Numbered from the stretch's first letter, positions 44,853-50,147 are shown. The stretch is 64,000 bases of DNA from a candidate division WOR-3 bacterium (GCA_039802605.1 JBDRWW010000002.1:192001-256000); one strand, 5' to 3'. Made by a program: numbers and translations. The notes: generated by a model not told the origin, from the letters alone.

Positions 44853-45685
44853 ATTTGAAGCGATTGGATTACGAGATTTTAAAGGTTTTGGCCTATTCAT
44901 CGGTTTTTGGATCGGGTTTGGATTTGGGGGAAATAAAAAGGTTTTTGGGGATAAAGGCGGATTACGGTGAGATAATGGAATCTTTAAACGTCCTGTTGGA
45001 AAAAGGGGTAATATTTGAAAAAGATGGGTTTTACGCTTTAAAACCGGAGTATGCGGATAATGCTATTAAAAATCGGGAGGTTTTCAAGCGTTATATTAAG
45101 AAATACAAATGGGCACTCACTTTAATATACGCTTTTCCGTTTGTTAGAGGGGTTTTTATTACGGGAAGTGTGGCTTCGGGATATCCTGCGGAAGGCGATG
45201 ATATTGATGTTTTAATGGTTTGCGGAAAGGGAAGGTTATACACCTGTCGCTTATTCGTTATGTTGTTTGTTAAGTTCTTTCCAAAAATTTGCCCGAATTT
45301 TTTCATAGCGGAAGACAACTTGGAGTTTAAACCCGAAGATTACTACGTTTGTAGGGAGTTAGCCCATATGATACCCGTATCTTCAAAATCCGCTTATAAA
45401 AAGATACTATGCAAAAACTCTTGGATTTTTAAAGTCTTTCCCAACTTTTACCCGAATAAACCGATTGAAGTTTGGGAAAGCAAAGGATTAAAGAGGTTCT
45501 TGGAGGTAATTTTTTCGCCAATGCCCGAGAAATCCCTAATGGAATTGCAAATCAAAAGGTTTATGAAAAAGGGCTTTAAAGGCGAAGATATAAGGTTTAA
45601 TGAAAGGGAATTTAAACCGCATAAAGAACCCCACCGTAAAAGGATTATGGAAAGGTTTTCGGAGGTTATGAGTTCCCTAAGTTGA
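44849..45685 (+). CDS. Nucleotidyltransferase-domain protein with N-terminal winged-helix-like region
   Basis: TGSVASG.....DDIDV Pol-beta-type motif, CPN. Confidence 0.7.
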   Translation: MNLKRLDYEILKVLAYSSVFGSGLDLGEIKRFLGIKADYGEIMESLNVLLEKGVIFEKDGFYALKPEYADNAIKNREVFKRYIKKYKWALTLIYAFPFVRGVFITGSVASGYPAEGDDIDVLMVCGKGRLYTCRLFVMLFVKFFPKICPNFFIAEDNLEFKPEDYYVCRELAHMIPVSSKSAYKKILCKNSWIFKVFPNFYPNKPIEVWESKGLKRFLEVIFSPMPEKSLMELQIKRFMKKGFKGEDIRFNEREFKPHKEPHRKRIMERFSEVMSSLS

Positions 45686-46919
45686 GTTTTAAACTTTTTA
45701 TGGCATTTCTAAAAACTTCGGACCTGTGTTTGTAATCCCTGAACATATCAAAGGATGCGCACGCGGGCGATAGTAAAACGGGTTCCCCGGAGGATATGCT
45801 ATAAGCCTTTTTAACCGCATCGTACATATCACTCGCCTCAACTACATCAACTATGTCGGAAAATGTATCCTTTACGAGCTCTTTACTTTTGCCAATTGCA
45901 ACAATCCCCTTAACCCTTTTCCTTACCTCATCCCTCAAACTCTCAAACCCCAAGCCCTTGTTATCCCCGCCCATAATTAACACAACCCGTTCAAAGTTTT
46001 TAAGGGCGTATAGGGTGGCATGCGGGTTTGTACCCTTTGAATCATCGTAGAATTCAACATCTCCAACCCTATCAACCAACTCAACCCTACCCTTTAAAGG
46101 CCGTAAGTCTTCCAAATTAAACTCTCTAACCCCAATAAGGTATGAGGACAATACCGCAAACATAGTGTCATATATAAGGGGAGGGGTTTGTAAATGTTTA
46201 GGCATTTCTATTCTTCCAAACTCCCCGAATATAAAACCATCATCATAAAAAACATCGGATTTTTTTGAATTTATAGAGACCGTAAGAACCTTACCTTTGG
46301 CGTTCCTTTTGCATACCTCAAAGTATTCGTCATCGGCGTTTAGGATGGAGAAGTCGTTCTCATTCAAATTGTAAAAGATTTTTAGCTTGTCCGTCAAATA
46401 GTTTTCAAATGTTAAATGCCAATCAAGGTGATCCGGGGATATGTTCGTTATAACCGCTATATCCGGCTTAAACTCTTTTGTATAATGTAATTGGAAGCTT
46501 GAAACTTCCAAAACGAATATACCCTCCTTAAATGCAAAATCCGAAACCGGGGTACCCCAATTACCACCTATAAAAGAGCCTTTTATTAGTTTATGCGTAA
46601 AATAAGCCGTCGTCGATTTTCCATTTGTTCCCGTAATTGCTATAACCCTACCCTTTAAGAATTTCCAACCTATTTCCAACTCTGGTATTATTGGTATTTT
46701 GGAATTTTCAACCCTACTCAAAACCCTGTGATGTGGTGGTATTCCCGGCGAAGGCGAAACGATATCGCACATCAATATCCTGTAAGTGTTCTCCCTCTCA
46801 TCCCCTTCATTAATGTCGGATACAAATGTTTTTACACCGATTTTATCCATTAAACTTTTTAAAGATTTCCCACTTTTACCAAACCCCAATATACCCAAAT
46901 ATTTACCCTCTAACCTCAT
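45666..46919 (-). CDS. murD: UDP-N-acetylmuramoylalanine--D-glutamate ligase
   Basis: SPGIP, ITGTNGKST, EVSSFQL, DHLDWH, DDSKGTN, LLSPACASFD. Confidence 0.96.
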   Translation of the reverse strand: MRLEGKYLGILGFGKSGKSLKSLMDKIGVKTFVSDINEGDERENTYRILMCDIVSPSPGIPPHHRVLSRVENSKIPIIPELEIGWKFLKGRVIAITGTNGKSTTAYFTHKLIKGSFIGGNWGTPVSDFAFKEGIFVLEVSSFQLHYTKEFKPDIAVITNISPDHLDWHLTFENYLTDKLKIFYNLNENDFSILNADDEYFEVCKRNAKGKVLTVSINSKKSDVFYDDGFIFGEFGRIEMPKHLQTPPLIYDTMFAVLSSYLIGVREFNLEDLRPLKGRVELVDRVGDVEFYDDSKGTNPHATLYALKNFERVVLIMGGDNKGLGFESLRDEVRKRVKGIVAIGKSKELVKDTFSDIVDVVEASDMYDAVKKAYSISSGEPVLLSPACASFDMFRDYKHRSEVFRNAIKSLKLNLGNS

Positions 46920-47650
46920 ATTGCCGCGTATGTAATCCTCTTCGATTTTGCGGTGGGCTTTTCAAATGACAGGTCGTCAAAAGCCCAAACATTTATAAAT
47001 CCGGCCTTTAAGAGCAAACTTTTAACCTGGTTTAATGTATAACCCTGTTCCGTATAAACCTCCTCTATTTTTCTGTAAAGGTTGTCGCCATAGGGCACGA
47101 AAAGGGTTAATGTCAATTTTGCCCTACCGTTGCCCAAGTACTCACCTTTCCAGATGCTATAAATCCCATCCTTCAAAATCTTCACAAACAACGCCTCATT
47201 CCAAACGGTTTGCATTGCGTAAGTTGTATTTAAATCGCATACGAGAATACCGCCCGGCCTTAGGTGTCTCTTAAAATTTTTAAACGCCATAAACAATTCT
47301 TCGGGTTCTAATATGTTGTTCAAACTGTCGAATGTACTAACAATTGCATCAAAATCCATATCCAAGGAAAAACTCCTCGCATCGCCGACATAAAACTGGA
47401 CATTGGGCAATTTCTTCCTAGCAACCTTTAACATATCCTCAGAAAAGTCTACTCCCACCACATTATACCCCAAATTTTTTAAGTACTTCGTTAAATTACC
47501 CGTGCCACAACCAACCTCCAAAACATCCTTTACCCTCAACCTTGAAAAGGTAAAGATCCTGCTTATATACTGCGCCCAATATTCGTAATCCACATCTTCA
47601 AATAAGTAATCATAATATTTTGCCACCTCCGAAAACGGCTTTATTGACAT
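46916..47650 (-). CDS. Class I SAM-dependent methyltransferase
   Basis: YYD, VLEVGCGTG, GVDFSEDML, DSLN, LRPGG. Confidence 0.9.
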   Translation of the reverse strand: MSIKPFSEVAKYYDYLFEDVDYEYWAQYISRIFTFSRLRVKDVLEVGCGTGNLTKYLKNLGYNVVGVDFSEDMLKVARKKLPNVQFYVGDARSFSLDMDFDAIVSTFDSLNNILEPEELFMAFKNFKRHLRPGGILVCDLNTTYAMQTVWNEALFVKILKDGIYSIWKGEYLGNGRAKLTLTLFVPYGDNLYRKIEEVYTEQGYTLNQVKSLLLKAGFINVWAFDDLSFEKPTAKSKRITYAAI

Positions 47651-47655
47651 ATAGG

Positions 47656-47676
47656 GAATTATACGCTTGAAAAGTC
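47656..47676 (+). repeat. 21-bp direct repeat copy 1 (GAATTATACGCTTGAAAAGTC)
   Basis: Identical to 48458-48478; on the minus strand it holds the nuclease stop codon and TATAAT. Confidence 0.92.
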
Positions 47677-48450
47677 CTTTGGCCTAAAGTTTTTTGGATT
47701 TAAAACCTTAACATCCTTGCCGTCTTTATGCTTTAAAACGATAAAACCCTTCTTACTCGCATACCTATCAACACCCTTCTGTATCCTCATTCCGGCAACG
47801 GCACCATACAACCTAAAACCTTTATACTCATAAAACACCTTTAAAAACTTATTCTTTAATCTTTCCTCAAACTCATCAACATCTCCCTTTTTTAATGTGG
47901 TTTTCACCTCAACGACAATAACATAATCTTTTCCAACGGCCAACGCATCAACTTCCATATCCTTCCTTTTCCTATACTCCTCCAAGTAAAACCCTTTAAA
48001 CCCCAACTCCTTTAAAGCATATTCCAAACCCTCCCTTATCGTTTCTTCCGTATAGTTTTGCCATAAACCGTTTAACTGGGATATTGATGTTGTAGTTTTA
48101 TCAACTCGTATAGCTATTTCCTCTATTTTTTTACTCATAACTTTTATCTGTTCATCCGTTTCAGCCTGTCTCTCAGCAAGTTCTTTTATCTTTTTATCAG
48201 TCTCCTCCTGCCTTTTTGCAAGGCTTTCAACCAGTTTCCTCGTTTCCTTTAACATCTTATCCGTTTCCTTTTGACTCTCAGCAAGTTCTCTTAGTTTTTT
48301 ATCTGTCTCCTCTTGACTCTTTGCCAACCTGTCAAGCCTTTCGCCAACACTATCAAGCCTTCTACCAACATCATCAAGCCTTTTGCCAACATCGTCAAGC
48401 CTTTTTCCCACCTCTTTTAGTATTTCCCATATTTCTTTTGCATTCTCCAT
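47659..48450 (-). CDS. Coiled-coil protein with C-terminal PD-(D/E)XK nuclease-like domain (DUF3782-like)
   Basis: Heptad repeats VGKRLDD x4 and Q.ETD x4; EVD...VEVK motif; start revised to ATG 48450. Confidence 0.8.
   Translation of the reverse strand: MENAKEIWEILKEVGKRLDDVGKRLDDVGRRLDSVGERLDRLAKSQEETDKKLRELAESQKETDKMLKETRKLVESLAKRQEETDKKIKELAERQAETDEQIKVMSKKIEEIAIRVDKTTTSISQLNGLWQNYTEETIREGLEYALKELGFKGFYLEEYRKRKDMEVDALAVGKDYVIVVEVKTTLKKGDVDEFEERLKNKFLKVFYEYKGFRLYGAVAGMRIQKGVDRYASKKGFIVLKHKDGKDVKVLNPKNFRPKDFSSV
48331..48412 (-). repeat. In-frame 21-bp tandem repeats encoding VG(K/R/E)RLD(D/S/R) heptads
   Basis: TCAAGCCTT recurs every 21 bp, four times. Confidence 0.8.
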
Positions 48451-48457
48451 ACAATGT

Positions 48458-48478
48458 GAATTATACGCTTGAAAAGTC
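48458..48478 (+). repeat. 21-bp direct repeat copy 2
   Basis: Identical to 47656-47676; minus-strand TATAAT is 9 nt before ATG 48450. Confidence 0.92.
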
Positions 48479-48554
48479 TCCAAATACCTCATACGCTAAG
48501 AAAGTAGGGCAAGCTCATTAAAAGGTAAGTTCAACCTTATAATATTCCATCTCT

Positions 48555-50147
48555 ATGCTTGAAATTTTACTTGCGGCCAGTAATCAGTATTTAAAAATAT
48601 ATGTTTTGCACTGGAACGATGCCCACGGACATATGGGATATAACGAGGCCTTTTGGCTTGACCCGGATTTCCCACCCTTGTTATCAAACGCCCGAGCCTT
48701 GGCCTATATGGTTAAAAAATACCGTGAAAAGGCTAAGAAAGAGGGTTCTTTGCTTTTGGTATTTGATGCGGCGGATTATTTTCAAGGGGATCCCTTAGGC
48801 GAATTGACTAAGGGCAAACTTTATATTGATATTATGAACTATATAGGATTGACGGCGGGAGCCGTTGGAAATCACGATTTTGATTTTGGCAGGGATATAT
48901 TGGATTCCCTTGCAAAATGGGCAAATTTTCCGCTATTATGCGCCAACCTAACGGATACACTCGGAAACCCACCTTCACTTGCAAAACCGTACATAATTAT
49001 TGACACCATGGGTATAAGAATAGCGGTTTTTGGGTTGATAACCCACTGGCTAAAAGGCATGGTTCCACCCCAAAATATGCCAGACCTTGATGTAAAGTGG
49101 GAATATTCATTCGTTAAGGAATTCGTTCCAAAATTGAGGAAGGAGTACAATCCGGATATAGTAATAGCATTAACGCATACGGGTTTTAGGCATGACCAGA
49201 GGAACGCCGACAGCATTAGGGGAATAGACCTAATAATAGGGGGGCATAGCCATACGGGTCTTTATAAGCCGTACTTTTCTCGGATAAATTCAACGGCCAT
49301 AGTTCAAGCGTTCTCACATATGGCAAACCTCGGAGTTGTAGAAATCCTTTACGATAGGAAAAACAAAACCATAGTTGATATAAAGGGTAAGATAATAACA
49401 TTAAATGCGGAAAGGGTTCCATCAGACCCCTATGTTGATTCCGTATTAACCGTTTACGAGAAAAAGGTGGATAGTATTTACGGGGAAGTGGTGGCTATAA
49501 GCGATGGGGATTTTAACAGGGGTGGGTTTGTTGAAAGTTCTATGGGAAATATTATAACGGATGCTATGAGGTGGTATGTTGAAGAAAGACTCGGAGAAAA
49601 AGACTTCCCCGTTGTTGCCATTTATAACGCCGGAGGTATAAGGGCAAACTTCCGTTATGGAAAGATTACAAAAAGGGATGTTTATAACGCCCTACCCTTC
49701 CCAAATGTCTTAATGTATGGAAAGGTAAAGGGGGAGGACTTATTAAAAATTTTAGGGGTTGGTTTTAACGGCCACCATGCAATATTCAACGTTTCGGGTT
49801 TAAAGTTGGAGTACAACAACGATAAACTTTATTTGGATAGTATAACCGCCGTTATTAGGGATAGCATAACCCTAGACAGCATGGGCGTCAAGACCTATAA
49901 CTTACCCTTAGCAGAAGTAAAAATACTTGAAGTTGGAGGAAGACCTTTTCACCCCGATTCCACATATATATTGGTTTCTAACGATTACCTTATAAACGGA
50001 GGAGGGGAATATGTGGTGTTTAAGACTTTATGGGATATAAAGGATACGGGAAGGAGGATATCGGATATAGTTGAGGAATATTTACGGTTTAAGGGTAGAA
50101 TTAAACCCCAAATAGAGGGGAGGATAAGGAAGATTAAGGGGATATGA
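48555..50147 (+). CDS. 5'-nucleotidase / UDP-sugar hydrolase family metallophosphoesterase
   Basis: HWNDAHG, DAADYFQG, GNHDFD, THTG, GGHSH, C-terminal NAGGIR and LPFPN. Confidence 0.9.
   Translation: MLEILLAASNQYLKIYVLHWNDAHGHMGYNEAFWLDPDFPPLLSNARALAYMVKKYREKAKKEGSLLLVFDAADYFQGDPLGELTKGKLYIDIMNYIGLTAGAVGNHDFDFGRDILDSLAKWANFPLLCANLTDTLGNPPSLAKPYIIIDTMGIRIAVFGLITHWLKGMVPPQNMPDLDVKWEYSFVKEFVPKLRKEYNPDIVIALTHTGFRHDQRNADSIRGIDLIIGGHSHTGLYKPYFSRINSTAIVQAFSHMANLGVVEILYDRKNKTIVDIKGKIITLNAERVPSDPYVDSVLTVYEKKVDSIYGEVVAISDGDFNRGGFVESSMGNIITDAMRWYVEERLGEKDFPVVAIYNAGGIRANFRYGKITKRDVYNALPFPNVLMYGKVKGEDLLKILGVGFNGHHAIFNVSGLKLEYNNDKLYLDSITAVIRDSITLDSMGVKTYNLPLAEVKILEVGGRPFHPDSTYILVSNDYLINGGGEYVVFKTLWDIKDTGRRISDIVEEYLRFKGRIKPQIEGRIRKIKGI

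Follow-up and report, generated by a model that had tools for sequence, protein, structure and literature searches.

Ends of a coiled-coil PD-(D/E)XK nuclease gene family as candidate promoters of neighbouring genes in a candidate division WOR-3 bacterium

A perfect 21-nt direct repeat encloses a single gene for a coiled-coil PD-(D/E)XK protein in the stretch of candidate division WOR-3 DNA analysed here (64,000 nucleotides, referred to below as the window), and we read this repeat as the end motif of a proliferating, promoter-donating gene family, not as the footprint of one insertion, with a probability of about 0.65. The gene is a member of a multicopy family, not a single insertion, and this family is probably both selfish and promoter-donating. 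Its unit would consist of a promoter motif, a short leader, the nuclease gene and then the same motif again, the second motif being written in the last five codons of the gene and its TAA stop. As the motif has the promoter form of the organism (T-rich, C at -6, TATAAT and a leaderless ATG 7-10 nt further on), the 3' end of the unit would be able to drive the next gene or tRNA. If this is correct, it describes a compact route by which a selfish gene can persist: with a host promoter lying in its last codons, the neighbouring gene or tRNA would come to depend on it, and only those deletions that keep its tail would survive. It would also provide a genomic behaviour for a large and functionally blank family of coiled-coil PD-(D/E)XK endonucleases.

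The repeat, GAATTATACGCTTGAAAAGTC, is present twice without a mismatch at a spacing of 802 nt (Table 1), and a search of the window allowing up to three mismatches returns these 2 matches, whereas 100 dinucleotide shuffles give 0.00 on average. Read on the minus strand as GAC TTT TCA AGC GTA TAA TTC, the downstream copy terminates the nuclease ORF (...KDFSSV, TAA) and places its TATAAT 7 nt before the ATG of the methyltransferase gene, while in the upstream copy TATAAT stands 9 nt ahead of the nuclease gene's own ATG. A sequence-only reading of the window had described this perfect repeat boxing one nuclease gene, together with both spacings, and all of it was confirmed. The ATG at 48450 is the true start of the nuclease gene, because all paralogs align from ATGGAGAATGC and diverge further upstream; a longer ORF from 48492 was ruled out, the paralog homology beginning at ATG 48450. 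Across the whole genome there are five exact and three near copies of the 21-mer, every one at the end of a paralog or remnant, and the sequence also terminates the paralogs on contigs C7, C21 and C15.

Table 1. Features of the repeat-boxed nuclease gene and its surroundings (window coordinates)
Feature	Position	Strand	Remark
murD	45666-46919		next after the methyltransferase gene
SAM-dependent methyltransferase gene	46916-47650	-	first host gene behind the downstream motif
Downstream 21-mer copy	47656-47676	-	final codons of the nuclease gene (DFSSV) and TAA; -10 box 47658-47663
Nuclease gene, 263 aa and stop	47659-48450	-	about 10 paralogs in the genome
C-terminal PD-(D/E)XK nuclease domain (predicted), aa 125-263	47662-48078	-	from alignment, weak family matches and predicted structure
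Gene core identical to contig-end copies C12, C21 and C23	47888-48162		source of the ambiguity in the assembly path
N-terminal coiled-coil half, aa 1-124	48079-48450	-	matches coiled-coil families only
Upstream 21-mer copy	48458-48478	-	putative own promoter motif of the nuclease gene; -10 box 48460-48465
Divergent 5'-nucleotidase gene	48555-50147	+	own TATAAT at 48538-48543

The motif conforms to a general promoter grammar, which could be read from the window's genome (G000), a 1.65-Mb metagenome-assembled genome (MAG) of 23 contigs and 90% completeness. In this genome, occurrences of TATAAT followed by an ATG that opens an ORF of at least 80 codons peak at spacings of 7-10 nt (32, 69, 69 and 32 occurrences, respectively), with counts at other spacings mostly in single digits (range 0-18). 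These promoter sites are T-rich at -11 to -7, carry C at -6 in 89% of 188 sites, and show the consensus A-C-C-C downstream of TATAAT, the ATG lying 7-10 nt past the hexamer; tRNA genes are preceded by the same promoter form. There are 220 sites of this leaderless type genome-wide, with examples in the window at 47650-47676 and 48538-48557, which implies that leaderless mRNAs are probably widespread. A scan for sigma-70 -35/-10 pairs misses both TATAAT boxes of the window repeat, because this promoter type has no -35. The unusual combination of a T-rich stretch, C at -6, TATAAT and a leaderless start is thereby documented for an uncultured WOR-3 lineage.

About 11 of the 21 positions of the repeat are simply this generic consensus. 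At 18 of the 220 leaderless-type sites, moreover, a long upstream ORF stops inside TATAAT (2 of the 18 belong to the nuclease family and 16 to unrelated genes), and at a further 76 a long upstream ORF ends within 40 nt. Promoters inside the ends of upstream genes are thus common in G000, and therefore the architecture alone is not exceptional; the overlap of stop codon and -10 box, to which the sequence-only reading had drawn attention, is indeed seen in the repeat but is shared with the 16 unrelated genes and is not special.

In the genus of the window's genome (g1), the family C-terminus KDFSxV/L plus TAA spells the general promoter in copies that lie at unrelated loci. Among 31 3' ends with enough downstream sequence, which are not independent rows and include orthologous pairs of G000 and its same-genus relative G002, a duplicated sequence and a degraded copy that was parsed wrongly, TATAAT spans the stop codon in 17; 15 of these 17 are followed by a co-oriented ATG and ORF in the range of 5-13 nt downstream, the ATG lying at 7-12 nt, and the remaining two precede a tRNA and an SD-led GTG. 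Such a start follows in 2 of the 14 ends where TATAAT does not span the stop. We infer from these arrangements that the family 3' end probably acts as the promoter of the co-oriented gene or tRNA that follows it. Among family members, the stop inside TATAAT is seen in genus g1 only; members from genus g2 and from G017 keep the KDF peptide, not the TATAAT.

The host sides of these junctions point to the same position. For the host gene behind the C7 copy, the nuclease-free G004, G001 and G003 align with the occupied G000 only from TATAAT onward, and for the C11 host gene and the methyltransferase gene the alignment junction likewise falls at the -10 box. The methyltransferase-murD operon of G003 has a generic promoter with the same 7-nt spacing and no nuclease gene. 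Two observations in G003 may be added here: upstream of this operon (L027, 437-1477) lies a 346-aa ORF, which by eye we take to resemble a CRISPR RAMP protein, and at L107 a nuclease 3' end with its TATAAT lies 9 nt ahead of the start of a tRNA gene, so that a donated promoter would drive the tRNA.

That the paralogs might have flanking repeats of their own had been proposed from the window, and TATAAT was found at both ends of all G000 copies with an end in view, and of copies in G002 and G003. The upstream motif is conserved about 33 nt before the ATG of each copy and forms the constant 5' boundary of paralog homology. Its surroundings resemble family 3' ends in several places. In G002 (contig C40), a remnant of another copy (aa 211-263) is followed immediately by the leader and then the ATG of a complete one, and tandem copies with the same junction occur on G003 contigs C9 and C86. 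The copies on C7 and C11 have an upstream motif in common, which can be read as a variant of the family ending, DFAGL-stop; a 3'-end profile matches, over its final 42 positions, the stretch 5' of the C2-end copy, a remnant (E=0.005); and the upstream copy in the window aligns to the final 24 profile positions (nhmmer). Because tandem copies and remnants show the same junction, the upstream 21-mer of the window is, judging by these alignments, derived from a family 3' end and not a captured host promoter; it would descend from the 3' end of another member via a head-to-tail origin. The earlier suggestion that the gene had captured the methyltransferase promoter and regenerated it downstream is accordingly abandoned, the upstream copy being family sequence that resembles the 3' end, not a target-site duplication.

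The G002 orthologs of both G000 loci with the exact upstream 21-mer (the window and the C2 end) carry the usual family 5' type. The perfect 21/21 identity must be recent, because the G002 ortholog of the window's upstream motif differs at several positions, and it looks like a recent conversion of the upstream motif to the 3'-end type. In the proposed explanation, homogenisation of this kind produced the perfect repeat.

A tblastn search for the family in G000 gave 11 rows at 10 places (5 full length), which fall into two subfamilies with about 89-96% DNA identity within and about 80% between them, and 7 of the 46 contig ends of this genome fall within a family copy. Matches were found in 14 of the 41 genomes searched. 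Within the genus there are 27 matches in G002 and 22 in G003, and none was found in G004 (89% complete) or G001 (57% complete); G003 bears copies beside genes that have no copy in G000. In viral contigs there were 152 pattern matches, none of them confirmed, and a scan of genome contigs yielded only a G002-like MAG. Other repeats are also found at the contig ends of G000: at least two further families, with 91-100% identity over 100-440 nt, lie at starts or ends of C3, C7, C9, C15, C18 and C20 and at the ends of C4, C8, C11, C13, C16 and C17, and ORFs near them resemble paralogous surface or secreted proteins, not transposases.

All comparable G000 copies have orthologs in G002 (those with methyltransferase, 5'-nucleotidase, C12, C21, C2-end, C7, C11 and C1 flanks), and no insertion newer than the split of G000 and G002 was found among them. 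Where the two genomes differ, loss or flank exchange is the best reading. For six G002 copies, the corresponding G000 site lacks the gene; three of these six sites keep a 3'-end remnant directly before the same host ATG, and the other three have rearranged flanks. In the first and best case, a pseudogene at the start of G002 contig C8 (where the right flank is only about 45 nt, as the contig starts there) corresponds to a 3'-end remnant of about 40 nt, before the same host ATG, at about 19000 on C12 of G000. The copy on G002 contig C91 corresponds to a 45-nt remnant on G000 C22, which exceeds what a repeat-to-repeat deletion would leave, and the gene on G002 contig C13 to a 3'-end remnant at G000 C2:127348. 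Behind the C11 and C2-end copies, internally deleted second copies would now supply the host promoter. Copies also mark flank exchanges, as is evident from a G002 contig on which a copy connects the 5'-nucleotidase flank with that of C12.

The sequence-only reading had foreseen that recombination between the two copies would give a clean empty site, with one 21-mer between the methyltransferase and 5'-nucleotidase genes. Promoter-keeping remnant alleles are indeed observed at paralogous loci, but no clean one-repeat empty site for the window locus was found in G001-G004, where its flanks lie on different contigs or beside other genes; the methyltransferase and 5'-nucleotidase genes are adjacent in this assembly only. 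The flanks of the C7 and C11 copies are likewise not adjacent in nuclease-free relatives, a comparison of little power given synteny blocks of only a few kb.

It may be asked whether anything mobile or selfish is needed at all. An ordinary paralogous family could have grown by tandem duplication and genome rearrangement, with the repeat arising from look-alike promoters and short local gene conversion, and this would be compatible with the generic positions of the 21-mer, the unrelated genes with a stop inside the -10 box, the orthology of the G000 copies in G002, the tandem copies and the generally fragmented synteny. We nevertheless consider this account rather unlikely, given at least 10 copies in a genome of 1.65 Mb while two others from this genus have no match, the different loci occupied in G003 and G000, the constant 5' boundary of homology ahead of the ATG, and the precision with which the family-specific 3' end coincides with the -10 box, whether an unrelated host gene or a tRNA follows.

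The protein encoded by the boxed gene combines the heptad coiled coil and PD-(D/E)XK domain that had been recognised from the sequence. In the C-terminal domain, D44, E57 and K59 (domain-alignment numbering) are invariant among 12 aligned members, i.e. the window protein and 11 relatives with 44-79% identity, and these members have weak matches to the nuclease families NERD (12/12), PDDEXK_10 (6/12) and Hjc (4/12). The AF2 model of aa 125-263 has a pLDDT of 86.4, and its best Foldseek matches are NucS/EndoMS (2vld, 5gke), SfsA, Bax1, AF1548 and Hjc, with E as low as 1.9e-5 and TM of about 0.5; the domain profile gave no match under E=0.2 against PDB sequences. By predicted fold and the catalytic D...(D/E)xK motif, the domain is assigned to the PD-(D/E)XK superfamily, and nuclease activity is predicted. 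Coiled-coil noise, with names such as RmuC, SMC, Rad50, MCP, JetC and DruC, prevailed in whole-protein searches of Pfam, NCBIfam, PADLOC and PDB sequences, and these matches were rejected as indications of function.

Family assignment is close to the thresholds of two Pfam entries. The window protein scores slightly under the curated cut-offs of both DUF3782 (PF12644; 22.3 bits against 24.4) and NERD (PF08378; 20.6 at full length and 21.8 for the C-terminal domain alone, against 22.1), and, as NERD matches all 12 aligned members weakly, it is a relative rather than a scored member; Rpn/YhgA (PF04754) is absent among its Pfam matches at E<=0.01. A search with the domain profile found 2751 representative clusters at E<=0.001, mostly proteins of 200-250 aa with the domain at the C-terminus, and PF12644 is carried by some of the close homolog clusters. 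Hartmann et al. (2016, eLife, PMC4786415) described a coiled-coil PD-(D/E)XK endonuclease family, the stalks of which Pfam files under DUF3782, and the window protein shares the architecture of that family, with a coiled-coil stalk at the N-terminus and a PD-(D/E)XK domain at the C-terminus; their paper deals with protein structure only and, unlike the present analysis, has nothing on copy number, genomic context or a promoter role. The window protein matches, by its sequence features, this known but uncharacterised family, with which it probably belongs. Its coiled-coil part also contains four tandem 21-nt units at 48311-48415, of the 7-aa repeat type VGxRLDx, and a 105-nt internal duplication with 74% identity at 48130-48335.

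If the family is indeed promoter-donating, recombination between direct copies of the motif, or a deletion that spares the 3' end, would remove the gene and leave the host with a working promoter. Reciprocally, tandem arrays or circles would be formed; the former are observed, and none of the latter was seen in contigs. Copies would be hard to delete cleanly, because the downstream host gene would depend on the end of the element, and this dependence, along with ectopic recombination between copies, would result in their persistence, their position at points of rearrangement and broken assembly; it would explain why MAGs of this genus break at nuclease copies. As to the nuclease, a structure-specific role that helps recombination seems to us likelier than one in recognising promoters, because recognition of the general promoter would give it hundreds of targets.

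A more ambitious version of the promoter-donating reading makes the unit a transposase-less one-gene element in its own right. Recombination between the motifs would free a circle in which the stop codon of the gene overlaps its own -10 box, and the circle would re-enter leaderless promoters or remnants via homology to TTTTC-N5-TATAAT, aided by its own Hjc/NucS-like, junction-cutting nuclease; having replaced a host promoter, it would be undeletable. This version is speculative and we regard it as doubtful.

The window locus could also, at least in part, be a product of assembly. Contigs of four runs from four studies were compared over 46900-49300, and no contig among them bridges the nuclease gene: unitigs end at 47714 and resume at 48449, and depth inside the gene, where they break, is 2-15 times the flank depth. 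The join of the two window flanks through the repeated gene is thus the work of the MAG assembler alone, and is plausible. A chimera would have taken its 5' half from a copy linked to the 5'-nucleotidase gene and its 3' half from a second copy linked to the methyltransferase gene, joined via the identical core shared with C12, C21 and C23; C12 overlaps the window copy exactly over 127 nt at its end, and the G002 contig that ties the 5'-nucleotidase flank to the C12 flank would agree with this. We think such a chimera improbable, as the ambiguous core is only about 275 nt and can be reached by read pairs, and the G002 copy in question is a pseudogene that may have undergone rearrangement of its own. 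Both 21-mers are real in either case, and what they mean for the family is independent of the join. The contigs of the same four runs, which could not show rare forms, contain no circle or excision joint. Other copies have loose ends there, which part from the window sequence precisely at 48478 and 48465.

The reading first given to the locus, a one-gene cassette that inserted into the methyltransferase-murD promoter, duplicated or captured it as a site-specific direct repeat and could be excised as an 802-bp circle, is in our view very unlikely: it would account for the exact repeat, the sharp boundary at which the loose ends diverge, the paralogs likewise boxed by the motif and the nuclease-free G003 operon with its generic promoter at the same spacing, but the upstream motif is conserved in the family, not derived from the site, and is common to the C2-end copy with a G002 ortholog of the usual 5' type, the G003 methyltransferase promoter has a different upstream half, the 5'-nucleotidase gene is never the upstream flank in nuclease-free relatives, contigs show no circle or joint, and the insertion would have to predate the G000/G002 split. 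What stands of the mobile cassette is a gene that is multicopy, patchily distributed and placed differently in relatives; recent insertion does not, the G000 copies being orthologous in G002.

The promoter-donating family shares single traits with several known mobile systems. Insertion sequences of the IS3, IS30 and IS256 types have outward-facing or junction promoters. Like them, the nuclease family is multicopy with differing locations in relatives, breaks assemblies, and lies upstream of host genes that it could drive, and the promoter of the element itself would arise at a circle or tandem junction. The sequence-only reading had seen no transposase or terminal inverted repeat, and this was borne out: the nuclease gene, the sole gene boxed by the repeat, matched no Pfam transposase family, Y1_Tnp and rve had no match in G000 (90% complete), and the only inverted pairs are two weak ones, internal or offset, with none at the unit ends. 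A site-varying target-site duplication is absent too, as the flanking motif is family-conserved across loci. By these tested features, i.e. no transposase, no terminal inverted repeats and no site-varying target duplication, the family departs from insertion sequences, and its promoter, unlike theirs, would lie inside the coding end.

Free-standing homing endonuclease genes of the phage seg/mob type are single nuclease genes between host genes. The family is similar in this respect and in its presence/absence polymorphism among relatives, and as to occupied and empty sites, gene-versus-remnant alleles are present at paralogous loci and no clean empty allele was found for the window locus; it differs in having many copies at unrelated loci per genome, and a nuclease that cut the general promoter would strike hundreds of sites. 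Integron cassettes are promoterless, carry a palindromic attC and require IntI. Single-gene units, recombination-prone 3' sequence, tandem arrays and a proposed circular intermediate are common to both, whereas the end motif of the nuclease family would be a promoter, and no inverted repeat was found at the 3' end of the gene. The family thus resembles a selfish multicopy gene with an outward promoter, and fails the tested defining features of an insertion sequence and of an integron cassette.

Among nucleases, a further comparison is with the Rpn/YhgA-like proteins, PD-(D/E)XK enzymes with several copies per genome that have been linked to RecA-independent recombination or defence (Kingston et al. 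2017, PMC5350276; Zhong et al. 2023 preprint). They share with the window family its multicopy PD-(D/E)XK character, but belong to a different family, as the window protein has no PF04754 match, and the abstracts of these studies mention no coiled-coil stalk or promoter-bearing 3' end. In the literature on DUF3782, on outward-facing promoters, leaderless genes and insertion sequences, and on Rpn, no description of such an arrangement was found.

There are two tyrosine recombinase matches in G000, which we take to be possibly housekeeping Xer recombinases. Contig C19 of this genome (10,895 nt) has identical first and last 127 nt and is probably a circular plasmid or virus; one of its ORFs has a tyrosine-recombinase-like N-terminus, and a 79-nt stretch of the contig has a match in G002, close to a tRNA gene that lies downstream of the ortholog of the C2-end copy. 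Finally, a stretch of about 100-165 nt containing TATCACTTTGTGC lies beside three nuclease copies in G002, at L102 (upstream of the 5'-nucleotidase gene), L094 (end) and L123 (start); it is missing at the G000 orthologs and may be a small non-coding mobile element.
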